This document shows positions 5,431-49,617 of a stretch of 64,000 nt of DNA, piece after piece. Origin of the DNA: Candidatus Omnitrophota bacterium (GTDB lineage Bacteria > Omnitrophota > Gorgyraeia > Zapsychrales > JBDRMG01); NCBI GenBank assembly GCA_043812495.1, contig JBDRMG010000016.1:66137-130136 (forward strand), in the 5' to 3' direction. The first letter of the stretch is position 1. Every line of letters starts with the position of its first letter. The notes below the pieces were generated by a model. It saw only the letters and a program-made list of their open reading frames with translations. It was not told the origin of the DNA and searched no databases. A program made the translations under genes and the position numbers.

Positions 5431-5503
5431 AAGCGGCGGATGGGACTTGAACCCACGTCATCCTGCTTGGCAAGCAGGCATTCTACCACTGAATTACCGC
5501 CGC
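5431..5503 (-). tRNA. tRNA-Gly (anticodon GCC); CCA is not encoded.
   Basis: The reverse complement reads GCGGCGGTAATTCAGTGGTAGAATGCCTGCTTGCCAAGCAGGATGACGTGGGTTCAAGTCCCATCCGCCGC. It folds as a cloverleaf with anticodon loop TTGCCAA. Confidence 0.8.
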
Positions 5504-5567
5504 AATGACTATCTTCATCAACGAATCCTGTTTTTCCTGTCTAAATGCGGGCGGCCTATAAATATGA

Positions 5568-5649
5568 TGGGCGAGAGAGGACTTGAACCTCCATGAGTTT
5601 CCCCACATGCTCCTAAGGCATGCGCGTCTGCCAATTCCGCCACTCGCCC
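5568..5649 (-). tRNA. tRNA-Leu (anticodon TAG) with a long variable arm; CCA is not encoded.
   Basis: The reverse complement reads GGGCGAGTGGCGGAATTGGCAGACGCGCATGCCTTAGGAGCATGTGGGGAAACTCATGGAGGTTCAAGTCCTCTCTCGCCCA. Anticodon stem is CATGC/GCATG with loop CTTAGGA. Confidence 0.75.
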
Positions 5650-5674
5650 GCATCGGACGTCTTTTCATAAAATC

Positions 5675-5750
5675 TGGTGACCCACCCGCGACTCGAACGC
5701 GGCACACCTGCCTTAAAAGGGCAGTGCTCTACCGGATGAGCTAGTGGGTC
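5675..5750 (-). tRNA. tRNA-Lys (anticodon TTT); CCA is encoded.
   Basis: The reverse complement reads GACCCACTAGCTCATCCGGTAGAGCACTGCCCTTTTAAGGCAGGTGTGCCGCGTTCGAGTCGCGGGTGGGTCACCA. Anticodon loop is CTTTTAA. Confidence 0.8.
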
Positions 5751-12708: not shown

Positions 12709-15700
12709 TTATTTCAAATAGACATCAATACGGTCGGCCTTATTGTCGCGTATATCATTGGCAAAAGGCGAGGGGATAAAACCGGAAGATATTGTGACGG
12801 GGTCGCGGTGATCGGCGTACGCAATAACAATACGCTCAATCGACGCTTTGTTGTCGCCGAACGTATCCCGACGCTTGGGATTATGATAAACCACCAAGGT
12901 CGAGCCGAGAAAATTAAAAGCATAGGTATTTTTGGGAAGGACGATTTCCCGCTGAAGGCGATTTTTATCAAAATAAATTGTCTTTGTTTCTTGTTTTGTG
13001 AATAGCCACTTGGGCAATACCGGTTTAAACGCTAGTTCAAGATTTCCTTTCGGATCCAAGAAAAATGGAGCATCTCCCACATTCATCAAAAGCCAAATAT
13101 GCAGCCATTCGGCGGTGGTTCCGCTCAATCGTGCTACAAATCCACGGCCATGAAGACTTGCGTCTTCGTGGGCGCTGCTGACGATAAAGGAGGAACTCTC
13201 CAAAATACTGCGGCCGTATTTCTTCGGATCCATAAAAGGCACAAGAGTATATTTAAAATTCTTATAAAACTCGTCATACAATCCGAATTTGAGCAATTCA
13301 AGAAGGAATTTGTTCTCCATATGCATCCAGATCGATTGGTTCTCAAGCCAGCCCGCCGGAAAAACACTGGCCCGCCCGATCTCGGCTGATTCGCGGGATA
13401 AATCGTCATTGACGCGGTACATCTTGAGTTTTTTATCAAACAGAGGGCTGTGGCGGACGTTTTGATAAAGAGTGCGCGCCTTGATCTGGTCGTTCTGCAC
13501 TCTCAGGGCATGGACAAATCCTTCCAAGAAAAGAGGCAAAGCTTTTTTCTGGAAATTCAACGGGACAATATATGCGAGGCCGTCGGGATTAACCTTGTCC
13601 AATGTTTCATAATCTGTGATTTCATGGATAAAATAGGTCACGCACAAGCCATGCTTATTTTGGGCCAAGGCAATGGCTTTATCCGTTTTTTGGATCACCA
13701 GCTGCAAGAACCGGTCAATGACCGAAACAGGCATGGACCGTTCGACCCCGTCAATGCCTTGTTCCGTGCGGCGTCGATAATGTTCCTTGATTTCGTTGGA
13801 GTGACGCCAATAGACCAGCGGATCTTTTTGCGTAGTCAACAAATCATTGAGCCCGGAAATAAAACTCAAAAGTTCGTCATACATCCGCACTTCGGTGTGT
13901 CCATCCAGTTTCATGTCTTTGAATGAATGGCGGATGAACTGACAAAGCCTTTTCAGCTCAAATGTCTCGGAAATGGATGACCCCATCAGGCCCGGTAAAC
14001 CGTTGAGGGCGTCATACCAATTGGGCTTGTCCGCTTCCATTTCGATACCGACTCCGCTGGGATCAAGGGTGGCGGCTTTATTCGCCACAAGACACAAGAG
14101 CTTAACGAGGAGGCACGTAAAATAAACCGGGCCCTGCCCGCCATTGGTCCTGAGCTTATGGTCAAAAGCCTCCGTTACGACTTCATGACCTTTATCCACG
14201 ACAGAATGATATTGCCGGGGACCGTGATTCGTCAAAACATACCTTTGGTCCCGGGGCAGCACATGATGGGTATTGTGATAAAAGCTGAAGGCTTTTTTGT
14301 TAAGAAGCAGATTTCGTCTTTCTTCCGGATAAAGAGCGAGAAAGCGCTCGATCAAATCGAGATTATAAGTCCAGTGATCGGTCCAAAATCCTTCGCCGTG
14401 TTCAGCCAGTTCATGTTTATGGCAATAGCTCAAGAGTTCCTTCAAGAACTTCTGAGGTGACGTTTTGAGTTTTATATCATAATCATCGATTGACTTCAAA
14501 AGCGCCCCAGGGCAAAAACCTACTTTCAGAAGTTCTTTGACAAAATTTTTTCCTCGGCCAAGGATAAATTGATTAACGATGGCCTCGATCCTTGCCGGAC
14601 TGTCCAAAGAGAAAACATTCCCCTTGATGACTAATGGATTATACCCGTCGGCTTGAATCAGGCTCAGGAAATTCACGATATGGTTGTCTTTGACATCACG
14701 GTTAAACCACACGTCGTTGCGTCTGTTTTGGTTGACATCACGGTAATTTCCGTTGCCTTGAGAAAGATAGGTGGGATTCAGAATAAAATTATTGTAGTCG
14801 CGCTCAAGATCTCCGTGCTTACGGCTGTAGACATTAAAAACAATTTTTCCCTCTTGGGTCTCAAGCGCAAGAGGCAAGCCTCCGCGCATAACGTTATCCA
14901 AAAAGGTCTGTTGGCAATATTGATTGAAGGCCGCTGAGGAGCTTGACGTAAAGCAGTTATTTTTGATCTCTTGGATAAGGCGTTGATTTTCTTTGGCTTT
15001 ATGATCAATAAAATTTTTATTTCTTGCGCGCGCCAGTATTTTCTGAACCATAGCCACGGAATGCGTATGGCCAAACAGCGAAGTGATTCTTTCTTTCTTT
15101 TTTCCAGGCAAAGCAAAAGAGGCAAATGTCATGGCGCACAAAGAACGATTGCTGCTTTTTTGTTTCAAGGGAACTTTGAAAAGATTCCGGCCCATAAAAG
15201 CTTCGGGCACAAGAAAGTCGGTTGAATTGCCAAACACACTCAGAGGATCAATGATCGGATTCAACGGTTTTGGTTTCCGGCCTTCGTGCAAAAGACTAAA
15301 ATAAAAATGGCCTTCGCTGATGGATTTGACCTGCGGCCGGTCCGAAATAACCACTTTGAGATTATAATAGGGGGCTTTGTTTTCGAGATTCAAAACCTGT
15401 TTCCATGCTTCAACGGTGTGCGAAATATCTTTTTGCAGGCGGTCGATTAAACCGAACGGAATAATCTCCGGCATCCCGTCAATGACCTCAAGCGTTACTC
15501 TTTTTGTTCCAACATTTTCGATGGTGACATCCCGCACCAAAGCGGCATAGGGCTCTTCAGGTAAGGTAAAATAATTGACACGAACCACCAGCCCCAAGGT
15601 CACATTGGTCTCTTCAATCGTTAAATCATGGGAGGTGATCATCATCCGCTGCTTACGCTTAAATGCCCCGTTGGAAAGATTGTTCTGAAATGGTTCGTAA

Positions 15701-15996
15701 AGAATGGGTTTTCGCCCCTTTTTGATTTTAATGAATGTCCGGAAACCCTGTAAAGACGTTAACCGGTAAGCCTTGTTGGCCGGTTGGAATTCCATAATCG
15801 CCTTGTCTTTTCCTTCAACGCCGAAGCTAGCGATGCACTGGCCGCGGTTGACCGTGAACACCCACATGGGGATGCCCCAAAGACCGGCGATGCCCGGGAA
15901 GAAATTGCTGAAGGGCTCGGCATCATTATAATTCTCAATGATAAACCGGCCTTGCTCATCAAGATAATAGGATACGTTTTTTGCTTTATTCTTCAT
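12709..15996 (-). CDS. Large (1095 aa) GH94-like glycoside phosphorylase / six-hairpin glycosidase family protein (COG3459-like).
   Basis: The motifs GNGNYRDVNQNRR and FWTDHWTYNLD resemble the GFRDSNQD and DWND catalytic motifs of cellobiose/chitobiose phosphorylases. The assignment is tentative. Confidence 0.4.
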   Translation of the reverse strand: MKNKAKNVSYYLDEQGRFIIENYNDAEPFSNFFPGIAGLWGIPMWVFTVNRGQCIASFGVEGKDKAIMEFQPANKAYRLTSLQGFRTFIKIKKGRKPILYEPFQNNLSNGAFKRKQRMMITSHDLTIEETNVTLGLVVRVNYFTLPEEPYAALVRDVTIENVGTKRVTLEVIDGMPEIIPFGLIDRLQKDISHTVEAWKQVLNLENKAPYYNLKVVISDRPQVKSISEGHFYFSLLHEGRKPKPLNPIIDPLSVFGNSTDFLVPEAFMGRNLFKVPLKQKSSNRSLCAMTFASFALPGKKKERITSLFGHTHSVAMVQKILARARNKNFIDHKAKENQRLIQEIKNNCFTSSSSAAFNQYCQQTFLDNVMRGGLPLALETQEGKIVFNVYSRKHGDLERDYNNFILNPTYLSQGNGNYRDVNQNRRNDVWFNRDVKDNHIVNFLSLIQADGYNPLVIKGNVFSLDSPARIEAIVNQFILGRGKNFVKELLKVGFCPGALLKSIDDYDIKLKTSPQKFLKELLSYCHKHELAEHGEGFWTDHWTYNLDLIERFLALYPEERRNLLLNKKAFSFYHNTHHVLPRDQRYVLTNHGPRQYHSVVDKGHEVVTEAFDHKLRTNGGQGPVYFTCLLVKLLCLVANKAATLDPSGVGIEMEADKPNWYDALNGLPGLMGSSISETFELKRLCQFIRHSFKDMKLDGHTEVRMYDELLSFISGLNDLLTTQKDPLVYWRHSNEIKEHYRRRTEQGIDGVERSMPVSVIDRFLQLVIQKTDKAIALAQNKHGLCVTYFIHEITDYETLDKVNPDGLAYIVPLNFQKKALPLFLEGFVHALRVQNDQIKARTLYQNVRHSPLFDKKLKMYRVNDDLSRESAEIGRASVFPAGWLENQSIWMHMENKFLLELLKFGLYDEFYKNFKYTLVPFMDPKKYGRSILESSSFIVSSAHEDASLHGRGFVARLSGTTAEWLHIWLLMNVGDAPFFLDPKGNLELAFKPVLPKWLFTKQETKTIYFDKNRLQREIVLPKNTYAFNFLGSTLVVYHNPKRRDTFGDNKASIERIVIAYADHRDPVTISSGFIPSPFANDIRDNKADRIDVYLK

Positions 15997-19122: not shown

Positions 19123-20148
19123 TTATTCGACGAGTTGAATGTCGATTTTGACTTTACCCTGAACAGCCCTGACAGACGGTGAGTAAAAAGGCTTGGCATC
19201 TTTAATCATATAGCCTTGATTCCCGTTTAATAGGGCAATGCGGTCGCGTTCTTCTTGCGCGGCGATATGGGCCAAATGGGCCTCGCGCCGAAGATCTCTG
19301 ATTCTCAAGCGGATATGCCGATTCTTATTTTTATTGACGGAAATGGCGTATTGACCTTCATCTAAGCTCCTGATATCGCCGTTTAATATTCTCATTTCTT
19401 CCGCAAGGACAGCTATCTGTCTGCCGAGTTCATCATTTTTCCTTCTCATGTCGCTAATTTTTTCGTTTAAACCCTGAACCACGGAAGCGTTCTGCGCTTG
19501 AGCCTTCGCGAGCATATCCTCCGTCTGAACCAATAAAGCTTTGGCGGCATTCAAATCTTTGGACATATACATAATCGCGTCTTCTTGAATACGATTCTGA
19601 TCAAGGGCACTCGCATAAAGACTCGCTTGACCTCGCGCGTTGGCCAACATCAGATGATTGGATCTTTCGATTTCTCGATGAATAATCGCCTGCTGAATAA
19701 AGTAAACAGCCAAGAGCGCAACCATAATCGCAAAAAGAACAACGCCGATTCTCGTTTTGATGCGCTCGGCACCCTCAATCCGCGCTATTCTGTTTTGAAT
19801 CTTCTCTTTCAGGCGAAGGGCGATATCCTGAGCCGGATTCACAAATTCGATTCCGCACAGACTTCGGGATCCCAAGCGTTGCGGCCGCGCCCAAACCATT
19901 CGCCCAACAGGCGGCAAGAAGTCGACGGGTCCCTGTTTTGGCATTTCAAAAGCAAGAATGCTGTTTTGCGCAAAAGACACCTTGACATCGGTCTCAAGCA
20001 TCATGCCTGTTTCGCTTAAGTTTCTCACGCGCGCCGTCCCATCAATAGCCTGATCCTTAAAATGCCACGTCACGGGAAAACGCTCATTGATCCGGAAGCT
20101 TCTTCGAGCCTCCACGCGATACATCGGTGATTTGCTTAATAATCCCAT
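19123..20148 (-). CDS. PilZ-domain c-di-GMP-binding protein with a central transmembrane helix and a coiled-coil region.
   Basis: RRSFR...NLSETG are the PilZ RxxxR and D/NxSxxG motifs. A hydrophobic segment (IGVVLFAIMVALLAVYFI) follows, then a heptad-rich segment. Start was set at the ATG at 20148, which has a GGGGG Shine-Dalgarno. Confidence 0.65.
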   Translation of the reverse strand: MGLLSKSPMYRVEARRSFRINERFPVTWHFKDQAIDGTARVRNLSETGMMLETDVKVSFAQNSILAFEMPKQGPVDFLPPVGRMVWARPQRLGSRSLCGIEFVNPAQDIALRLKEKIQNRIARIEGAERIKTRIGVVLFAIMVALLAVYFIQQAIIHREIERSNHLMLANARGQASLYASALDQNRIQEDAIMYMSKDLNAAKALLVQTEDMLAKAQAQNASVVQGLNEKISDMRRKNDELGRQIAVLAEEMRILNGDIRSLDEGQYAISVNKNKNRHIRLRIRDLRREAHLAHIAAQEERDRIALLNGNQGYMIKDAKPFYSPSVRAVQGKVKIDIQLVE

Positions 20149-20156
20149 TTTATTTA

Positions 20157-20306
20157 CCCCCTTCAATGACGACACAGCTTATGGAGTCCGCCATTGTTTC
20201 TGTGTCTGTGGCGGACGACATAAGTTGTTTGTCGGAATTGAATCCTTGACAATTTTTGAAATATGGGTGGATATCGCAAGCAACCGAATATCAAAAATTG
20301 TCAAGG
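20157..20306. repeat. C-type hairpin repeat (20157-20235) followed by a perfect 16-bp inverted repeat, CCTTGACAATTTTTGA ... TCAAAAATTGTCAAGG (20244-20306, 31-bp spacer).
   Basis: Read directly from the sequence. The repeat lies in the PilZ gene 5' region and contains TTGACA on both strands. Confidence 0.6.
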
Positions 20307-21383: not shown

Positions 21384-23261
21384 CTACTTAAAAATTGCAT
21401 CCAAGACGCTATCAATCAGTTTTTCTTCCGAACTTTTCTCTTCCTGCGGCTGCGGCTCTTGGTCTTGGGGTGTTGTTTCTTGAGTTGATTGACCTTCTTG
21501 CGCCGGCTGCTCTTTTTCGTCTTTTCCGAGAACCTTTTGAAGGACTTTCTGCAACTCTTCTTTACCGTGCTGAACAATAATCTTTTTTCCCAGATATTCC
21601 AAGTCCGGCATATAGGAAAAATCCGGGATTTGTCCTTTGATTTTTGCGGGGATATAAATTTCTCCATTGTCATCAAGCAAATATTCCAATTCGGGTGTCG
21701 CCTGGACCATGCTGTCGGATAAATCCTGAGGAATCGATAGGCCAACGCTTAACGACAGCTGACGATCCAAGTTAAGGGTTCCTTGGCCCGTAATCATAAA
21801 AACATTTGTCTCGACTTGGGCACTATCAATATTAAGATTACGGCCGGACAATGTTATTTTAAGAGTGACCTTTTTAAGTGGCGTATCTTTTTCTTTGAGC
21901 TTGTCCTTGTATTTTTGCGGAAGATTCTCTTCTAATTTTTCTACAAGGCGCGGCAGCATGGAAATTTTGCTTAAAAACACCTTCAGGACATTGATATTCA
22001 CGAGCTTTCCATCCTGAACGTTAAGCTCGCCCTGCCCTGTCAGCGAATTCAGCGCGGCATCGGCATTCAGACCGTATCCTCCCATATCCATCTGACCCGA
22101 AAGTTTGCCTTGCAGTTCAACCGGTTGATTACCCTTGGGAATAAGTTGAGATAAATCGAGCTGATCGATTTCCATCATTACATCAAAGGCCTGTTTCTGC
22201 ATATAATCGACAATCGCTCCGTTCATTTTGATTTGACCGGAGGCCAAAGGTAAATTGGCTTCTTTAATGACCATATCTTTTTCGTTGATTTTGAATTTCA
22301 CGAGAATTTTCTCCAAAGGAAACGGGGCGCTCTTGATGCTCAGGCGGCCCTCTTGGAGCGCGCCGTCAGCAAATAATTTTGTCAGCCCCGATCGATTGAG
22401 CGTGATTTCATCGATAGCCATACTCAATTGGCCTTCAAAGCCTTCCTGAAAACCAACACCCTTGACCATGGGGATAGATGCTTCGAGTTGCTCAAGGGAT
22501 ATTTTAGATAAATCCGAATCGATTTTGATATTTCGGAAATGAACGGCGAGATTTCTCACGTCGACTTCCAGCGTGCCCTTGGCTGTGATGTTCTTCCATG
22601 AGCTAAAAACGGAACCCTCTAGGTTAAAGTCAATCGGTTCATTGAGCGAGAAATTGTCCACGGATAAGTTCAAGTTCTTGGCCTCGATAGCGATGGGCTC
22701 TTCAAGGGATTGATCGATAAAGGTGACCATGCCATCACGCAAGCGAAAGGATTTAACAAGAAGGGTGGACAGCGCCTTACTGGCTGTTGACATTTGCGAA
22801 TTGAATTTTGACGCAATCCCTGAAGAGGGTTCTTCGGAAGTTGTCTTCTCATCCTTTTGGGAAAGACCTTGAGTGTTGATCTGGCCCTTAGCATCACGGA
22901 TAATATTAATTTTTGGAGACACAAATTCAATACTTAAGATACTGATTTGTCTTGTTTTGATAAGGGTTTGAAGATCCAGGCCTAGCTGAACATCTTCTAT
23001 CGTTAAGAAATTTTCCTTTGAGAAGGCGGCATCATCAGCCAAAGCTAATTGATGAATATTGAGGGTAATGCCCTGCAAAAAAGAAATGTCTAATTGAATC
23101 TTACCGATGGCAACATCGCGACCGACAGACCGGCTGATTTCTTTGGTAATCTGGGTCCGGTATTTGTCGGCGTCAAAAGTACGCACAAACACAACAAGGC
23201 CGATGAAGGCAACGACTAGGATCATGCATAATACGAGAAAGAAAACCTTGAGAAATTTCAT
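21384..23261 (-). CDS. AsmA-family outer-membrane biogenesis protein with an acidic low-complexity C-terminus.
   Basis: An N-terminal transmembrane helix followed by AsmA-like repeats (DVAIGKIQLDISFLQGITLNIHQLALADD). A GGAGG Shine-Dalgarno precedes the ATG at 23261. Confidence 0.7.
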   Translation of the reverse strand: MKFLKVFFLVLCMILVVAFIGLVVFVRTFDADKYRTQITKEISRSVGRDVAIGKIQLDISFLQGITLNIHQLALADDAAFSKENFLTIEDVQLGLDLQTLIKTRQISILSIEFVSPKINIIRDAKGQINTQGLSQKDEKTTSEEPSSGIASKFNSQMSTASKALSTLLVKSFRLRDGMVTFIDQSLEEPIAIEAKNLNLSVDNFSLNEPIDFNLEGSVFSSWKNITAKGTLEVDVRNLAVHFRNIKIDSDLSKISLEQLEASIPMVKGVGFQEGFEGQLSMAIDEITLNRSGLTKLFADGALQEGRLSIKSAPFPLEKILVKFKINEKDMVIKEANLPLASGQIKMNGAIVDYMQKQAFDVMMEIDQLDLSQLIPKGNQPVELQGKLSGQMDMGGYGLNADAALNSLTGQGELNVQDGKLVNINVLKVFLSKISMLPRLVEKLEENLPQKYKDKLKEKDTPLKKVTLKITLSGRNLNIDSAQVETNVFMITGQGTLNLDRQLSLSVGLSIPQDLSDSMVQATPELEYLLDDNGEIYIPAKIKGQIPDFSYMPDLEYLGKKIIVQHGKEELQKVLQKVLGKDEKEQPAQEGQSTQETTPQDQEPQPQEEKSSEEKLIDSVLDAIFK

Positions 23262-23580
23262 TAATATCCTCCACATTTATTTAAGCTTAAAACCGGTGAA
23301 CCATACGGGAGCTATTGTACTTCTTGAACCCTTAAGAGTCCACATCTTTTTCATGGAAAACTGCCAGAAAATTTGTTTTAAAAAGATTAACGCAAAAGTT
23401 TATTGCTGCTTTTTAGGGCGCTCTCCTAACATTATATTTTATCGTAGGTTATGCATTTTAAGAAAACGCTTGTACAAAATACTATTTTTTTCAAAATAAA
23501 TTTGGCAACCTTGACAATCATGGTATATCCTTTCAGTAGATGCAACCACTTGCTCTTTGTAGAAAATAATCGTTCCATAT

Positions 23581-23905
23581 GACGATAAAGGCAAACCCGT
23601 TGTGAAACGGGGGCCCCGGCTTCGCCAAATATTTAACATGTTTGGCTTCGCCGGGCCCGGCATAGCTGAATGCGAAAGCAATTCAGCGAAGCCGGGGCAA
23701 AGCCAAGGGTCCTAATCAAATTTAAACAGGACAGCCTGGCTACCGAATCAAGAACGTTTTGACGATAAACCCTATATAAGGGTCCGGCGTAGCTAAACGC
23801 GAAAGCTTTTTAGCGAAGCCGGAGGCTAACTCGCTGTAAAGCGAGGGCGCAAAGTCAAGGGTCCTATGATGAGGGACGGCCTGGCTGCCGAATCAAAACA
23901 AACGG
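23581..23905 (+). ncRNA. Candidate structured RNA or cis-regulatory leader. Two tandem ~180/145-nt units each begin with GACGATAAA and contain a conserved hairpin, CCGGC-RTAGCT..GCGAAAGC..AGC-GAAGCCGG.
   Basis: The direct repeat runs 23581-23760 and 23761-23905. The inner stem differs between the two copies by compensatory changes (GCTGAAT/ATTCAGC versus GCTAAA/TTTAGC). A plus-strand intrinsic terminator follows. Confidence 0.35.
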
Positions 23906-23917
23906 GTCAGTAAATTT

Positions 23918-23953
23918 AGCCTGTTTCCCTGCAATAGGAAACAGGTTTTTTTA
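23918..23953 (+). terminator. Rho-independent terminator (CCTGTTTCC-CTGCAAT-AGGAAACAGG followed by T7).
   Basis: A perfect 9-bp stem plus a U-run sits 25 nt upstream of the RBS of the next gene. Confidence 0.6.
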
Positions 23954-23993
23954 TTGGGCAGCCCCAAGAAACACAAAAAGGAGGTTGGTTAAA

Positions 23994-24920
23994 ATGAGAA
24001 AACACGCAGTCATAACTTTTTTATTTATCGCTTTATTTGTGATGGGAACAACAGTCGCAGCTTTGGCAGGAACAGGCGGCTATACAAAGAATTCGAGCAG
24101 CGGTGGTGCCAGTGGTAATGCCGACATTGTTCCTACTGGTGTTTGTGGTGACGCGGATAACAATGGCGGAATAGACATCGATGACATGATCCTTGTCTAC
24201 GCGTATATTTTTGCCGGTGGCGAAGCGCCTTCATTCTATCTTCAAGCTGACGCGACGGGCGATGATGCGGTAGACATTGATGACTTTCTAAGATTACAAA
24301 ATTACATATTTGGTCAAGGGGAAGCGCCTGCATGTCACAAGTATGTCAGCTGCCTCGATTACAACGGAAATGGAAGAGTCAATACAAAAGACTTGGAAGT
24401 CCTGATAGCCTATATTTTTCAGGGCGGCGATCTGCCGGCTGGCGGCGATGCCACCGGAGACGGCGTGATTGACGTCGATGACTATGCGCAGGTCTTGATC
24501 CCTTACCTTTCCGGCACAAAACTTTTACCACCTTTGTGCGGAAGCAGGGCATTTTACCCTTGCTTGGATGCTACCAATGACGGTCAATCAAGAGAAGATG
24601 ATGTGGAAGCGATCATCAATGCAATTTTCAATGGTCAACCGCTTCCACCAAAAGAGCGCGCAGATTGTACCGGTGATGGCATTGTAGATATTGATGATGT
24701 GAGCTTTGCTATTGACTTTCACTACAATAATGGTCCAGAGCCAGTATGCTCATCGACAGGATTCCTAACACCATCTTCTGTTGAATCCTATTGCGGTGAT
24801 GGCATTTGTAATGGTGCCGAAACATGCGCAACTTGCTCAATGGACTGCGGCACATGTCCTGCTCCAGAGCCAACACCATCTGCCTCGCCTTCTACAACAA
24901 CCAGTACTATGCTTAGATAA
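23994..24920 (+). CDS. Secreted protein with six dockerin-type-I-like calcium-binding repeats and a Cys-rich Pro/Thr/Ser C-terminus.
   Basis: A signal peptide (MRKHAVITFLFIALFVMGTTVAALA) is followed by DADNNGGIDIDD, DATGDDAVDIDD, DYNGNGRVNTKD, DATGDGVIDVDD, DATNDGQSREDD and DCTGDGIVDIDD loops, each followed by an aliphatic helix. An AGGAGG Shine-Dalgarno lies upstream. Confidence 0.7.
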   Translation: MRKHAVITFLFIALFVMGTTVAALAGTGGYTKNSSSGGASGNADIVPTGVCGDADNNGGIDIDDMILVYAYIFAGGEAPSFYLQADATGDDAVDIDDFLRLQNYIFGQGEAPACHKYVSCLDYNGNGRVNTKDLEVLIAYIFQGGDLPAGGDATGDGVIDVDDYAQVLIPYLSGTKLLPPLCGSRAFYPCLDATNDGQSREDDVEAIINAIFNGQPLPPKERADCTGDGIVDIDDVSFAIDFHYNNGPEPVCSSTGFLTPSSVESYCGDGICNGAETCATCSMDCGTCPAPEPTPSASPSTTTSTMLR

Positions 24921-32615: not shown

Positions 32616-35486
32616 TCAGTGGACACTAAGCATCTTGCAATACTTATTAAAATTTACATCCGTATTCTTCAATAATGCCCAACCTGTTATGCTCACGCCT
32701 GGCAAATCGGCAGGAGGCAAGCTGCCGGTCAAATAGTCCGATTCCCATTTAAATTCCGATGGAATAGAGCCAATATCGAAAGGGAACTTCCCTACCGCCC
32801 CTCCACCGCACCAGTCATTGACTTCATTGCAATATTCTGAACATCCTCGGCAGGATTTCCAATAGAAATCTAAAAAATAGTAAGTATCATAATGTTGATA
32901 AAATCCCTGCGTATCGGGGCCATTCAAACATTCCTCTTGCGTGCAACTTCGGTTATAGTCACTCAAGAGCCATCCATAATCATAAAATTCCATAGGGTCA
33001 GTCGGATCGCTGGGATCATCCTGAAAGAGAGAATTCGGTAATTTAAATAATGTGCCGGTAAATGTCTTGCCATAATGTTTATAATCTTCATTTTTGTCTT
33101 CCCAATCATTCTTCCAGTTCCAAAGCTCAAGAGTGGTGTTATAAAAAAAGTTTCCTAAATCAGCCGCGTTATCTCCAATAATAGAAATCCTGTATACTTC
33201 ATCCTGCATAACCCTATTGGGCATAGGATCAGCCGTTCCTTCTTTGTGGGCGTTTCGCCATGCCGAATGGACCGGTTCTTCTTCATTTTCCTCAGTATCT
33301 GGGTCGTCTATGTAAAAAATATCCGGGTGATTTCCGAGCTCCGGTATTTCTTTGGGAAAATCAAAATCGCGCGAAAGAGGAAAAAATTTTTCCCTCGCTA
33401 TAACAGAGGCGGGGACATAATTCTCCGTATTTATGCTCCCTATGGCATAGGCGTTTCCCTCTGTAACAACAGTTAATCCGCCATCCATTAATTCTTGCGC
33501 ATGAGAAAGACCTACATCCCAATCCGAGTAAGCCACATTCTCTTTGGGTGCCGGTATTACTCCTTGGCCAATGGCTTTATTTAAATTCTCAATATCAACA
33601 AGAACAAGCGAATGCCACAGCGAACTCATTGTATTATAGAAACCTTCCTTTTTAAAAATGACCACGTCTGCAGGTGAACCGTCAACATCAATGGTGACCT
33701 TGATTTCTCCGTATTCATCCGGCACACGTTCAAAAATTTCTGTCTCACCGGTAATTTTCACCTTATAATTTCCAACGGTCCCTCCCGTACTATCTAAAAG
33801 ATTTTCTTTCAGATAATAAAGTTTTTGAAAATGGCGTCCTTCAAAATTTCCGGAACTGTTAAAGCTAGCGCGATCTACCGTGTTTTCAATAAGAATTCCT
33901 TCGTCTTTAGCCATGTTTCTGAGTCTTTTGGCGCTCACGATAGGGCTTGCGATGCTTGTCGCGCCTGTAGAGCTATCGAGTAAAACGCCTTGGAGAACAC
34001 CGCCTTCAGTGGTCTCTAGAAACTCGGCCCAATCATCGGCTTGATATTCTGTATTTAAGAATTTGACTTCTGGGCAAAAACGTTCATCGGTGCATGTTGT
34101 TTGAATATCATCCGGATTATAATCATTGGGCGGGAAAAAAGAGTAAGCTTTAGTGTAATTATCCGTGTAGGTCTTGCGTCCCATGATACCGTCTTGTGCG
34201 TATCTTGGCCACCGCCATTCTGTGTCCAATCGATTCGGTATTTTGACTGTTGTCGGAGTATCTGGATCATACGGTGTTATGAGAGCAGGATCATAAAGAT
34301 TACTTCCCGTCGGCGTATTATACATATACTTTTCGGGATAGAGGATGGGATCAAGGGGGCGCCACGTATAACCATCTTCCACCACCCCAATTTTATCCCG
34401 ACAGCCAGCGAATGTGCCGGTCGTTCCTTTTTCGCACAATAGACCACCTCGATCTCCGGATAAATAGCCATTATATTCATTGATCCATTTATTAGGATCA
34501 TAATATTTTAGACGAGGATCTGAGGCGTTGACATCAAACATGCAATCATCCGGGTCTAGCCAAGAAGCCGAACAAGCACCGGTTCTCCAATTTGTTGTTC
34601 CGTCAGAACGATCAATGCCATATAATTCAGCCCAGGTTTTATAGCTGACGTGTGGTTCTCGCGTAAAGTAATTATCCGCGACTGTTTTGTTATTCTCATC
34701 CACGCACATACCTGTCCAGCCATCGCGCGCGCAGGAGATAGATCCTGCCGCCGCAGGAACTGCATCAAGATCAACCATCGGAGTGAAATAAAAATTATCC
34801 ATTTTTTGCTTAAAATATTTTGCCGTGCTCAATTGTGAGATATTTTTAATTTGAGTACCTCCAACAAACGTTATATTCTCATTCGAATGAATCCTTCCTC
34901 CTGCAGCATCATAGACTGTTACGCCATCAAAATTTATGCCAGCTTCCGGATAGAACATAAAATAATCATAGAGAGAACCCGTTGAGACCCTTGCCGCTAA
35001 AAGTCTTTCTTTGTTTCCGCTTATTCCTTTGATTAAAACAATCTTGTTTTTGGTATCAACGCAATCGTATGTTGCGCAAGGGATCGCGTCGTTATAGATT
35101 TTCGCCACGAATTGTATTGGTTGGTCTTCTTGAGACGCGTAGCCCTCCTCTGTTAACTCATTGAGGTCTTCCAGCACGATAACCGGAGCTTGGGCGCCGG
35201 TAACTTCAGAATAATGGATGAGTTGCTCTGTATTAATATCAACAAAGTGTGTAACCCAGTTATCGGAATCGGGAGAGGAATTTTTCAATTCCTCAATGAC
35301 ATACTCCAGGCCGCGTTCAGCCGCATAAAGAGCCTTCATGGAATTATCATCGTGGCCAACCGATATTTTCTCGCCAATGGATTTTAAAAATTGCGCTCCG
35401 GATAAACCAAGAAAAATGACTGTCGCCGCAATTACGGTGAGAATAAGCCCTTGGCCTTTCTGATTTCTTAATGTGTTAAGTGTCAT
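32616..35486 (-). CDS. Large secreted PilX-like / putative pilus tip-associated protein (956 aa).
   Basis: The N-terminus (NQKGQGLILTVIAATVIFLGLSGAQF) resembles the PilX N-terminal pseudopilin-like helix. The rest is Asp/Gly/Tyr/Trp-rich with no known catalytic motif. A GGAG Shine-Dalgarno precedes the ATG at 35486. Confidence 0.45.
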   Translation of the reverse strand: MTLNTLRNQKGQGLILTVIAATVIFLGLSGAQFLKSIGEKISVGHDDNSMKALYAAERGLEYVIEELKNSSPDSDNWVTHFVDINTEQLIHYSEVTGAQAPVIVLEDLNELTEEGYASQEDQPIQFVAKIYNDAIPCATYDCVDTKNKIVLIKGISGNKERLLAARVSTGSLYDYFMFYPEAGINFDGVTVYDAAGGRIHSNENITFVGGTQIKNISQLSTAKYFKQKMDNFYFTPMVDLDAVPAAAGSISCARDGWTGMCVDENNKTVADNYFTREPHVSYKTWAELYGIDRSDGTTNWRTGACSASWLDPDDCMFDVNASDPRLKYYDPNKWINEYNGYLSGDRGGLLCEKGTTGTFAGCRDKIGVVEDGYTWRPLDPILYPEKYMYNTPTGSNLYDPALITPYDPDTPTTVKIPNRLDTEWRWPRYAQDGIMGRKTYTDNYTKAYSFFPPNDYNPDDIQTTCTDERFCPEVKFLNTEYQADDWAEFLETTEGGVLQGVLLDSSTGATSIASPIVSAKRLRNMAKDEGILIENTVDRASFNSSGNFEGRHFQKLYYLKENLLDSTGGTVGNYKVKITGETEIFERVPDEYGEIKVTIDVDGSPADVVIFKKEGFYNTMSSLWHSLVLVDIENLNKAIGQGVIPAPKENVAYSDWDVGLSHAQELMDGGLTVVTEGNAYAIGSINTENYVPASVIAREKFFPLSRDFDFPKEIPELGNHPDIFYIDDPDTEENEEEPVHSAWRNAHKEGTADPMPNRVMQDEVYRISIIGDNAADLGNFFYNTTLELWNWKNDWEDKNEDYKHYGKTFTGTLFKLPNSLFQDDPSDPTDPMEFYDYGWLLSDYNRSCTQEECLNGPDTQGFYQHYDTYYFLDFYWKSCRGCSEYCNEVNDWCGGGAVGKFPFDIGSIPSEFKWESDYLTGSLPPADLPGVSITGWALLKNTDVNFNKYCKMLSVH

Positions 35487-35522
35487 GCTCTTCTCCAAAT
35501 CTTGTTTTAGGTAATATCATAC

Positions 35523-37226: not shown

Positions 37227-37488
37227 CGTTCGGTTCTTTTTTAAAAGAATCCTTTCTGCTTATAAGTATACCACGCTGCGATTAAAGATAAATGACGGAT
37301 TTAAGAATTTAAGAATTTAGCGACATTTCAGAAAATGAGAAATTTTTTTGGCATAAAATTATTTTATCCGCCTTCGCCTGAATACTACGGCTGTTAGGCC
37401 GTAAACAAAAGACGGCGGATAATCCTGCGAAGCTCGAACACGAAATTATTGGAGCGAAGCAGGATTGGCTTCGGCGGATTTCGCCGAA

Positions 37489-37524
37489 GAATTAAAAGAG
37501 GCTATGGGCATAAGCCCATAGAGT
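37489..37524 (-). terminator. Intrinsic terminator downstream of the DUF368 gene (CTATGGGC-TTAT-GCCCATAG followed by CCTCTTTTAATTCTT on the minus strand).
   Basis: A perfect 8-bp stem plus a T-rich tail lies 3 nt after the stop. Confidence 0.5.
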
Positions 37525-37525
37525 T

Positions 37526-47838: not shown

Positions 47839-49617
47839 TTAGTCAAAACAGCAAATCCTATTTTTGCCTTCTCGCTTGGCCTGGTAAAGCGACTGGTCTG
47901 CCTTCATGACAAAATCATGCCGATCCATTTGGCCGGCGTAGCGGGCCGCACCGATACTGATAGTAATTTTTCGTCTTAAGTTAAGACCCTCAATAGATTT
48001 CTTTACTTTTTCTGCAACTAGTTTTGCTTGCGGAATATCTGTTTCAGGTAAAATAGCCGCAAACTCATCACCCGCATAACGGCAAAGGATATCAACATTA
48101 CGCATACTTCGCTTCATCATCTGACTTGCGCGAGAAAGCAGAATATCACCTTCCGGATGGCCATACTGATCGTTATACTCTTTAAAACCATCGATATCGA
48201 TCATCAACAGACACAAAGGCCTCGGGTAACGTCTTGAGCGCTCAATCTCCTGCTGAAGCGTCTTAATAAACTGACGATGATTAAAAAGACTTGTCAGGGA
48301 ATCCGTTGTTGAGAGGAATTCCAATTCGCGATAATAATAGGCATTTTCAATCGCAATGGCGGCCTGACGGACAATGCTGCAGAGTATTTTTAAATCCACT
48401 TCTGTAAAAATAGGATCCTCTTTGCTGTCCTTATCCGACACATTGACAACACCCACAAGCTTCGCATGCAGTTTAATGGGAACGCACAAGAACGATTTGC
48501 CCTTATAACTGGATCGATTCTTCCGCGCGATCAGCAGTTCTGATTCAATATCATTGACTAATAGGGGCTCTCCTTTCTGGGCCACAATGCCAGCAATAGG
48601 ATCCCCGACTTTTATTCTTGTTTCTTTGATGATCTTTTTTTTCAAACCCTTTGCGCCCTTAATCAAAAGCTCCTGGGAATCATCATCGACAAGCATCAAA
48701 GAACACTTTTGCGCTTCCAATATTTGAGTTGCCTTTTCAATGACAAAGTCTACCAGCTGATTAAGTTCAAGAATCGAGCTGATCTTCTGGTCAATGTTTA
48801 AAACTTGTTCCATTTTCTTTCTTTCAAATTCTAAATCTTCCTGCAACACCTTGAGTCTACTTTCTATTTCTTTTCGTTCTGTAATATCCTGAAATATTTC
48901 AAGAACGGCATTTTTGCCCTCATAAAGCATGCCGGTGTGTGTAACGAGAAATGTCCGTCCTCCCAGGACGTCCTCCGTTTCAATGGACGCCACTTCGCCG
49001 ATTTTGATATTTTTTCTAAGCGGGCACAAGAGGCATTGGGCTTTATCGTCTTTGTAAAGATCCCAGCATCTTTTTCCAATGGCCTTTTTTCCGTAAATCT
49101 TCTTTAATTTCTCACACAAGAAAAGAATTTTACCCTCTTGGTCAACAATTTCCATGCCGAAAGGAATCGTATTGATCAGGGTCTGGTTAAACTCGCTAAT
49201 GCGCCGAATGGCTTCTTCGGCTTGTTTTTGTTGGGTGATGTCGCGGATAACTCCTTCTGTTCCGATGATGCGGCCGGTTATATTTTTAACAAGATTACTG
49301 GTGACGGAGAGAATGATTTCGCGGCCATCTTTTCTTTTGTTGACAACTTCATAATCTTTAACAAATCCTTTCTTCATAATTTCCCCTAAGAATAACTCGC
49401 GGTCATTGGGATTGCTATAGAGTTCTTGAGCAAGATTCAAGCCAAGAACCTCTTTCTTGCTTTTATAACCCATAATTTCCACGTAGGCCTGATTGATAAA
49501 AATAAGATTGCCCAAGACATCGGCCATATAAACGCCGCTTTTTAAGGATTCAAGAAGGTTCTGAAAGGGTCTTTCTGCTTCTCTTTGAATTTTCTGAGGT
49601 TTTCTGGATTCGATCAT
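47839..49617 (-). CDS. PAS-PAS-GAF-GGDEF diguanylate cyclase with an AGDEF active-site variant and an RxxD I-site.
   Basis: RNVDILCRYAGDEFAAIL is the GGDEF-domain core. Upstream GAF and two PAS-like segments. Confidence 0.8.
   Translation of the reverse strand: MIESRKPQKIQREAERPFQNLLESLKSGVYMADVLGNLIFINQAYVEIMGYKSKKEVLGLNLAQELYSNPNDRELFLGEIMKKGFVKDYEVVNKRKDGREIILSVTSNLVKNITGRIIGTEGVIRDITQQKQAEEAIRRISEFNQTLINTIPFGMEIVDQEGKILFLCEKLKKIYGKKAIGKRCWDLYKDDKAQCLLCPLRKNIKIGEVASIETEDVLGGRTFLVTHTGMLYEGKNAVLEIFQDITERKEIESRLKVLQEDLEFERKKMEQVLNIDQKISSILELNQLVDFVIEKATQILEAQKCSLMLVDDDSQELLIKGAKGLKKKIIKETRIKVGDPIAGIVAQKGEPLLVNDIESELLIARKNRSSYKGKSFLCVPIKLHAKLVGVVNVSDKDSKEDPIFTEVDLKILCSIVRQAAIAIENAYYYRELEFLSTTDSLTSLFNHRQFIKTLQQEIERSRRYPRPLCLLMIDIDGFKEYNDQYGHPEGDILLSRASQMMKRSMRNVDILCRYAGDEFAAILPETDIPQAKLVAEKVKKSIEGLNLRRKITISIGAARYAGQMDRHDFVMKADQSLYQAKREGKNRICCFD

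Follow-up and report, generated by a model that had tools for sequence, protein, structure and literature searches.

A predicted tandem c-di-GMP-I riboswitch with a single terminator, its two aptamers probably split by copies of a dispersed palindrome, in an Omnitrophota bacterium

The stretch of DNA analysed here, which we call the window, comprises 64,000 nucleotides of contig JBDRMG010000016.1 (GenBank assembly GCA_043812495.1) from a Candidatus Omnitrophota bacterium. Region 23581-23953 of the window lies upstream of a plus-strand gene for a secreted dockerin-repeat protein and is, as judged from its sequence, part of the 5' leader of that gene, with two cyclic di-GMP-I (c-di-GMP-I, or GEMM-I) aptamers in series and one terminator. 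We put at roughly 80% the probability that this is a tandem c-di-GMP-I switch with one terminator, in which both aptamers are split, at two permissive sites, by a dispersed palindrome that resembles the repetitive extragenic palindromes (REPs) and inverted doublets (REPINs) mobilised by RAYT transposases. The riboswitch class is known. What would be new is the splitting of both aptamers by a dispersed palindrome at two recurrent sites, together with the one common terminator.

The product of the downstream gene (308 aa) has a signal-peptide-like N-terminus and Dockerin_1 repeats (3.3e-11), and is identical to an Omnitrophota protein at NCBI that comes from a metagenome-assembled genome. A preliminary description of the sequence had noted two tandem structured-RNA-like units, followed by a strong terminator, a ribosome-binding site (RBS) and this gene, and had pointed to PilZ and GGDEF proteins in the window. 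The sequence features it described all lie where it had placed them. The terminator has an 11-pair stem, the RBS reads AAGGAGG, the Dockerin_1 match is confirmed, and the window does encode a PilZ protein, at 19123-20175, as well as a GGDEF protein of PAS-GAF-GGDEF type, at 47839-49617. The two units carry GACGATAAA at 23581 and 23761, a word with six copies in the window against 0.72 expected, and a repeat finder shows the blocks GCAAAGYCAAGGGTCC and GGACRGCCTGGCTRCCGAATCAA to be conserved between them. The 386-nt region folds far better than its shuffled versions (z = -7.2). The features of the locus are listed below. Site A lies directly 3' of C44, between C44 and G45, and site B lies in the junction J1/2, just 5' of A-G20; L numbers denote related loci.

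23502-23531, plus strand: promoter-like site, TTGGCA-N18-TATCCT, from a consensus scan; putative function.
23571-23614, plus strand: aptamer 1, 5' part, from the RF03167 alignment; layout common to L125, L134 aptamer 2 and L140-1.
23615-23655, minus strand (inverted): repeat copy a, opening half of the site-A insert; together with b2 it makes up a 43-nt inverted repeat, and nhmmer scores it at 36-44 bits on the minus strand.
23656-23696, plus strand (direct): repeat copy b1, second half of the site-A insert; repeat finder, nhmmer and covariation over 12 copies.
23697-23756, plus strand: aptamer 1, 3' part, from the RF01051 and RF03167 alignments and P3 pair counts.
23756-23769, plus strand: aptamer 2, P1 5' strand GUUUUGACG and J1/2 AUAAA, read from the sequence.
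23770-23822, plus strand: site-B insert, made up of hairpin x (CCCUAUAUAAGGG, 23770-23782), a U and repeat copy b2 (23784-23822); missing from L001 aptamer 2, nhmmer 48 bits.
23823-23899, plus strand: aptamer 2 core; RF01051 54 bits, RF03167 56 bits.
23918-23952, plus strand: intrinsic terminator, the sole predicted expression platform; 11-bp stem, 8-nt loop, U7, RNAfold -15.5 kcal/mol.
23978-24920, plus strand: RBS AAGGAGG (23978-23984) and the regulated gene (ATG 23994, stop 24918-24920) for the 308-aa secreted dockerin-repeat protein.
37423-37464, plus strand: diverged fourth repeat copy, outside the riboswitch; outer stem CCUGC/GCAGG, nhmmer E = 2.3e-9 with a 12-copy profile.

The preliminary description had proposed a scan against Rfam, and this returned two matches to RF01051 (c-di-GMP-I) at or above the gathering score of 35. 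Unit 2 matches at 23814-23892 with 54.0 bits. The match of unit 1 (23667-23747) is marginal at 35.8 bits, and its alignment takes repeat copy b1 for the P2 helix. With permissive filters, RF03167 scores 56 bits for unit 2 and 38.6 bits for unit 1, where its alignment runs from 23581 to 23748 and contains a single insertion of 88 nt; this model outscores RF01051 in E-value mode. In unit 1 only a loose GEMM match had been seen before. The GGCAAACC motif and GNRA hairpin on which it was based, joined across an 82-nt insert to a CAAAG...CCGAA block, are the true aptamer 1.

In aptamer 1, the 5' part consists of a distal P1 strand CGUUC (23571-23575), the P1 5' strand (23580-23584) and J1/2, followed by G20 (23590), GC (23591-23592), AAA, the P2 hairpin (23596-23611; CCCGUU-GUGA-AACGGG, with a GUGA loop) and GGC (23612-23614), whose last nucleotide is the C44 equivalent. 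The 3' part begins with GC (23697-23698) and A47 (23699) and continues with P3 (23701-23741, with an AG bulge at 23733-23734), C92 (23743), the P1 3' strand (23744-23750) and the distal P1 strand GAACG (23752-23756). In aptamer 2, P1 is formed by GUUUUGA (23756-23762) and UCAAAAC (23893-23899), for which the equivalents are CGUUUUG/CAAAACG in L001 and CGUUUUGA/UCAAAAUG in L134. G20 is 23824, and P2 (23830-23845; CUCGCU-GUAA-AGCGAG) has a GUAA loop and is followed by GGC (23846-23848)-GC, A47 (23851), P3 (23853-23886), C92 (23888) and the P1 3' strand (23889-23899). The two units differ in the P2 internal loop (AAA/GGC in unit 1, UAA/GGC in unit 2) and in the bulge of the P3 3' strand (AG and GG, respectively).

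Comparison with relatives supports these helices. With the inserts removed, 146 of the 150 helix cells in 10 aptamers are Watson-Crick or G-U pairs. All six P2 positions vary with pairing kept in 59 of 60 cells, and at each position of P3a, P3b and P3c, 9-10 of the 10 aptamers keep the pair. When each unit is folded alone with RNAfold, P1, P2 and P3 form and the inserts are closed sub-domains. The tetraloop receptor of type-1 GEMM RNAs is missing from the window, where P3 is only GGGUCC-loop-GGAC without the CCUAAG...UAUGG motif; this receptor is not universal in the c-di-GMP-I family, and it is present in L140-1. G20, A47 and C92 (Vc2 numbering) are the ligand-contact nucleotides in the crystal structures. 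Since position 47 is A and occurs together with G20 and C92, both units have the canonical c-di-GMP pattern and not the GGC variant. G20 is the selectivity position (PMC9262584, PMC9481103). On this pattern both units are predicted to be c-di-GMP-I aptamers, a known RNA class, and they presumably bind c-di-GMP.

Each of the two aptamers is interrupted once. In unit 1, an insert of 82 nt (23615-23696) at site A parts the P2 hairpin and GGC from GCAAAG. In unit 2, an insert of 53 nt (23770-23822) at site B parts GACGAUAAA from A-GGC. Two hairpins of 43 nt (23653-23695 and 23780-23822) share 84% identity, with inner stems GCTGAAT/ATTCAGC and GCTAAA/TTTAGC, and 23616-23658 was found by the repeat finder to be the reverse complement of the same element. 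The preliminary description had overlooked this third, inverted copy (23615-23655). The hairpin reads CCGGC-RTA-GC...GCGAAAGC...GC-GAA-GCCGG, and the three local copies a, b1 and b2 share CCGGC-RWA-GC-N19-GC-GAA-GCCGG. Copy b1 is CCCGGC-AUA-GCUGAAU-GC-GAAA-GC-A-AUUCAGC-GAA-GCCGGG; copy a forms a UUC/UUC hairpin with a decayed loop on the transcript. Around the inserts we found no target-site duplication that fits the canonical junction.

The hairpin had earlier been read as the covarying core of each tandem unit. The hairpins and their stem differences do exist, but the hairpin is a dispersed repeat insert and not part of the aptamer: the orthologous tandem riboswitch of L001 is without it, and copies lie beside tRNA genes and in other intergenic DNA. 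Because the hairpins are repeat copies, the covariation between them is uninformative on the riboswitch fold. The layout of the b hairpin, GGC-RUA-stem-GNRA-stem-GAA-GCC, is like that of the aptamer P2 arm, GGC-AAA-stem-GNRA-stem-GAC-GC, and this resemblance is the reason why RF01051 took b1 as the P2 of unit 1. We rejected b1 as the true P2, as L125, L134 and L140-1 share the order GGCAAAC-P2-GGC-insert-GCAAAG with inserts that are unrelated. We suggest that the REPIN-like element would have colonised two permissive sites in the aptamers, and that the inserts would fold on themselves, leaving the aptamer core able to close around them.

Loci with an AsmA gene on the minus strand, a leader and a dockerin gene on the plus strand are found in three other Omnitrophota assemblies, and each has two aptamers and one terminator. 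L001, the locus of the nearest homologue of the dockerin protein, is syntenic with the window in this order, and L134 and L135 were retrieved via the AsmA protein. In L001 both aptamers are unbroken and lie 13 nt apart; aptamer 2 reads GACGAUAAAGGCAAA without a break and GACGAUAAAGGC straight through, with no site-B insert. Aptamer 1 is canonical in both L134 and L135. Aptamer 2 carries a 62-nt insert of two hairpins at site A in L134 and two small hairpins at site B in L135, and these hairpins are unrelated in sequence to the window repeat. The distal P1 of window aptamer 1 covaries with CGUUCUU/AAGAGCG of L001. The AsmA proteins of the orthologues are only 40-45% identical, yet the aptamer cores are nearly unchanged, and the conserved core nucleotides are all intact in both window units. 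The promoter-like TTGGCA-N18-TATCCT is also present at the matching relative spot in L001, and L134 and L135 have a TATCCT/TATTCT hexamer followed by TGCAGTA. The earlier proposal of a tandem GEMM riboswitch for c-di-GMP, with a terminator at its end and an adhesin-like gene after it, is thus borne out by the Rfam matches and by conservation in the syntenic loci. L001 also has, at 5570-5647, a third, lone c-di-GMP-I aptamer with its own terminator, which precede another dockerin gene that closely follows the first one.

A second group of relatives is associated with pilin-like genes. L125 has a lone c-di-GMP-I aptamer, followed by a terminator and a pilin-like gene, with a doublet of an inverted and a direct copy at site A. 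The L125 pilin-like protein was used to retrieve L137, L138, L139 and L140. The same site-A doublet is present in L137, whose pilin-like protein is 65% identical to that of L125; the orthologous aptamers of L138, L139 and L140 are canonical and without it. L140 has a further aptamer (1065-1184), in which an insert of 29 nt with two hairpins occupies site A, and the L140-1 insert is unrelated in sequence to the window repeat. Between L125 and L137 the aptamer core is identical at 82 of 82 positions, as against 154 of 195 (79%) in the upstream intergenic DNA; the split aptamer of these loci is therefore under purifying selection. The inverted copy is 76% identical (31/41), with compensatory stem changes (CCAGGC/GCCUGG to CCAGGU/ACCUGG), and the direct copy is identical at 40 of 41 positions. 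The compensatory changes in L137 favour two separate hairpins over the 12-bp cross-helix between a and b1 that appears in the RNAfold minimum free energy structure, and we rejected this helix. In L137, L138 and L139 (about 70-2500), a CHASE2-GGDEF diguanylate cyclase gene divergently adjoins the riboswitch and the pilin-like gene, so that signal synthesis and sensing are encoded side by side.

We suggest that the split aptamers probably still work. It is improbable, in our view, that the inserts inactivated one or both aptamers and left a decaying riboswitch, with a terminator that is constitutive or run by the remaining aptamer only. Such decay is hard to reconcile with conserved core nucleotides that are intact in both units across AsmA divergence of this depth, with the 82/82 identity of the split L125/L137 aptamer against a 79% background, and with inserts that close as hairpins, so that the core can re-form. 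It is favoured by the position of both sites, which adjoin ligand-pocket nucleotides (C44/G45 and A19/G20), by the low score of unit 1 (just 35.8-38.6 bits) and by the lack of a supported anti-terminator. In the Vc2 crystal structure, C44 pairs between helices with the P3 bulge G.

The dispersed element is about 41 nt long and has an outer stem, a GAA or RUA opposite GAA, a GC-closed stem and a GNRA-like loop. With the 12-copy profile, 14 distinct copies were found in 155 kb of Omnitrophota sequence, in six kinds of context, and four of them are in the 64-kb window. In the 12-copy alignment 90% of cells are paired and eight pairs change on both sides, which none of 500 shuffles matches; controls slid along the alignment give 16-39%. 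Read on the direct strand, the loop is of the GNRA type (GAAA, GCAA, GUAA or GGAA) and closed by C-G in 10 of the 12 aligned copies, and the 3' arm GCGAAG is invariant. The doublets (a and b1 of the window, L125, L137, L003 and L133) are all arranged as 5'-(CTTCGC-type)(GCGAAG-type)-3'. Copies occur in both orientations to transcription, and inverted ones keep the GNRA pattern on the non-transcribed strand. These properties point to a REPIN-like dispersed palindrome of Omnitrophota genomes. The symmetric 3x3 internal loop was also considered as a K-turn and rejected, as its geometry is unsuited. The element has no family in Rfam, where only spurious mir-72 matches were obtained, and no Y1/RAYT transposase was found among the 38 larger window open reading frames (ORFs) scanned.

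Further copies came from two pattern scans. In a genome collection, CCGGCRWAGCN{17,21}GCGAAGCCGG gave 120 hits, almost all of them chance matches in GC-rich genomes, with L003 alone relevant; a tighter pattern applied to metagenomes led to L125/L129, L130, L132 and L133. In L003 (Omnitrophica WOR_2), where there is no aptamer, a tRNA gene is followed by two copies, one inverted and one direct. The doublets of L003 (1373-1500) and L133 (165-269) abut the tRNA gene, and the encoded CCA marks the exact start of the inverted copy; the tRNA 3' end would thus pair within the outer stem of the element. Potentially, these doublets bear on tRNA 3' processing. In the window, a cluster of three tRNA genes lies at 5432-5750 on the minus strand, and we detected no adjoining copy of the element there. 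The surroundings of the diverged fourth copy (37227-37525, between two minus-strand genes) are dense in hairpins, with the palindrome TTATCCGCC-TTC-GCC...GGCGGATAA upstream of that copy and CTTCGGCG-GATTT-CGCCGAAG within the same interval. A second palindromic repeat family, CCTGTCTGCCGACAGGCAGG, occurs in L130 (1006-1030), L133 (443-465) and L132 (about 597-640). It is often flanked by GCTTCGC / GCGAAGC arms, and in L130 it is apparently nested in an inverted copy of the first element.

Two-hairpin inserts are present in 6 of 14 distinct aptamers. Only sites A and B are used; the P3 loop, where insertion would be expected to be most permissible, is free of inserts. The sequence 3' of P2 is GGC in all six insert-bearing aptamers (both in the window and those of L125, L134, L135 and L140) and GAC in the insert-free ones, except L139, which has GGC. 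The recurrence at two sites and the association with GGC keep alive a different explanation, which we consider possible but distinctly the weaker one: the b hairpin would be a functional modular RNA domain and not selfish DNA, recruited into riboswitch junctions and tRNA trailers. Possible roles of the hairpin would then be stabilisation of the fold, protein binding, and protection or processing of the RNA, and the two-hairpin insert would define a true structural subclass of c-di-GMP-I aptamers. The near-identity of the direct copy between L125 and L137, beside an intergenic background of 79% and an inverted copy of 76%, fits such a domain, as do the GNRA loop, the invariant GCGAAG arm and the likeness of b to the P2 arm. 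It is opposed by the orthologous riboswitches of L001, L138, L139 and L140, which are canonical without the element, and by the inserts of L134, L135 and L140-1, which differ wholly in sequence. In addition, an element that acts at the DNA level would be expected to occur in both orientations, with inverted copies keeping the GNRA pattern on the non-transcribed strand, as is seen here, and the element lacks an Rfam family.

A bolder version, to which we give little weight, combines the two ideas. A REPIN-like palindrome would repeatedly colonise structured RNAs (after C44, before G20 and at the tRNA CCA end), and its hairpin with the GNRA and GAA loops would afterwards have become an accessory domain by domestication. 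Aptamers of this kind would form an expanded c-di-GMP-I subclass of their own and would work cooperatively in pairs on a single terminator, in a glycine-like dual sensor.

The arrangement of the aptamers suggests joint action. The distal P1 of aptamer 1 (CGUUC 23571-23575 with GAACG 23752-23756) extends to G23756, with which P1 of aptamer 2 begins. Between CCGAA and GACGA, L135 has a linker of 12 nt; those of the window, L001 and L134 measure 13 nt. The terminator stem (23918-23947) and its T-run are the sole terminator-like site on the plus strand within 23200-24100, and none lies between the two aptamers in this interval; the order of last aptamer and then terminator is kept in all related loci. 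Since no terminator separates them, the two aptamers most likely form one dual-aptamer switch that would act jointly on the terminator at 23918-23952. The strong terminator lies 40 nt before the start codon, and a stable, structured leader of about 415 nt would accumulate. This could speak for an independent small RNA or a c-di-GMP sponge in place of a cis-regulator, but we regard this as very improbable: aptamers, terminator, RBS and gene follow the standard cis layout, and this is kept with the downstream gene in four loci. Nothing pointing to targets in trans turned up either, though no search for them was made. The independent small RNA and attenuator options of the preliminary description are not needed.

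Candidate pairings that would set the direction of switching were compared in the two groups of loci. In the window, the candidate anti-terminators AAACGGG with CCUGUUU, AGGCUAA with UUAGCCU (7 bp) and GGGACGGCCU with AGCCUGUUUC were all rejected as untrustworthy. RNAduplex pairing of aptamer 2 with the terminator 5' arm gives z = +0.2 against 500 shuffles, and L001, L134 and L135 behave likewise. In the pilin-type relatives, the terminator 5' arm pairs with the P3 3' strand (L125, L138, L139) or the P2 3' strand (L140), with z = -1.05 to -3.05 against shuffles; for example, CUAUCCUU pairs with AAGGAUAG in L139. Such pairing of an aptamer strand with the terminator arm would make these riboswitches OFF switches, which is what the pilin-type loci suggest. 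A 16-nt complementarity (88%) also joins the 3' strand of aptamer 2 (23883-23898) and 23948-23963, just past the U-run of the terminator. We considered this pairing, with GGGCAGCCCC as a possible anti-Shine-Dalgarno sequence that pairs with the RBS, and rejected it, as it is not conserved in L001. In the relatives, a self-contained small hairpin occupies this spot.

Several points weigh against the interpretation that we prefer, a tandem c-di-GMP-I switch split by a REPIN-like repeat. Unit 1 clears the RF01051 cut-off only narrowly (35.8 against 35), and by an alignment that misuses b1 as P2. The set of inserts seen in the window aptamers occurs in none of the retrieved orthologues. Both sites are near the ligand pocket, site A abutting C44 and site B abutting G20, so the window's own aptamers may have impaired or altered function. 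The possible anti-terminator pairings of the window are no better than shuffled controls. The near-invariance of the direct copy (40/41) suits a role at the RNA level better than junk DNA. Finally, with only four copies in the window and no Y1/RAYT gene seen among its scanned ORFs, mobility of the element is presumed.

These findings add a further member of a well-known riboswitch class in a little-studied phylum, and in Omnitrophota they connect c-di-GMP with pilin-like proteins and with secreted proteins that contain dockerin repeats. They also indicate two positions at which structured inserts of 30-80 nt appear to be tolerated in natural c-di-GMP-I aptamers, which would be useful for RNA engineering. 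Covariance models currently mis-align such insert-bearing aptamers. In addition, they provide an example of a functional aptamer that is under purifying selection with a repeat element lodged in it. Elsewhere in the window, two very large minus-strand ORFs, 12709-15996 (1095 aa) and 32616-35498 (960 aa), have no Pfam match.

The element can be compared with two known kinds of short palindrome. Like REPs and REPINs, it is a short imperfect palindrome with several extragenic copies, inverted doublets in a fixed relative orientation and compensatory stem changes. Unlike them, it has no RAYT gene among the scanned window ORFs, with a copy count that covers 64 kb of the host genome; the Omnitrophota copies sit in functional RNAs, namely aptamer junctions and tRNA 3' ends, and one half of a doublet is far better conserved than the other. 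The element centre GCGAAAGC and the arms GCGAAGC are exactly the mini-hairpin DNA motifs GCGNNAGC and GCGNAGC, which have been described for short synthetic or natural single-stranded DNA (PMC13037366).

The aptamers themselves share with RF01051 (clan CL00126) the GGCAAAC start, the GNRA-capped P2, the G(A/G)C-GC-AAAG junction, the AG-bulged P3 and the CCGAA tail. They also share G20, A47 and C92 of the c-di-GMP type, a terminator as platform, a gene for a secreted or surface protein downstream, and GGDEF and PilZ genes in the region. They differ from this family in their two-hairpin inserts of 53-82 nt, at sites outside the Rfam consensus, in a short P3 without the 11-nt tetraloop receptor, and in GGC for GAC 3' of P2. 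Among tandem c-di-GMP-I riboswitches, Sherlock et al. (2022, PMC9481103) count 347 doublets and 12 triplets. That survey classes them as 'multiple expression platforms / pseudo-cooperative' and lists the layout of two aptamers with a single platform for glycine and guanidine-II; a survey of tandem riboswitches from 2025 is similar in emphasis (PMC12452182). As in the known c-di-GMP-I tandems, the window has two aptamers of the same class in one 5' untranslated region. In contrast to them, its aptamers are 12-13 nt apart, with abutting P1 helices and a single terminator, a glycine-like one-platform doublet that the two surveys do not describe for this class. The tandem glycine riboswitch has another ligand and fold, and here the abutting P1 helices, which share G23756, are the only inter-aptamer feature seen. 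The two systems are nevertheless alike in their two homologous aptamers, short conserved linker and single expression platform.

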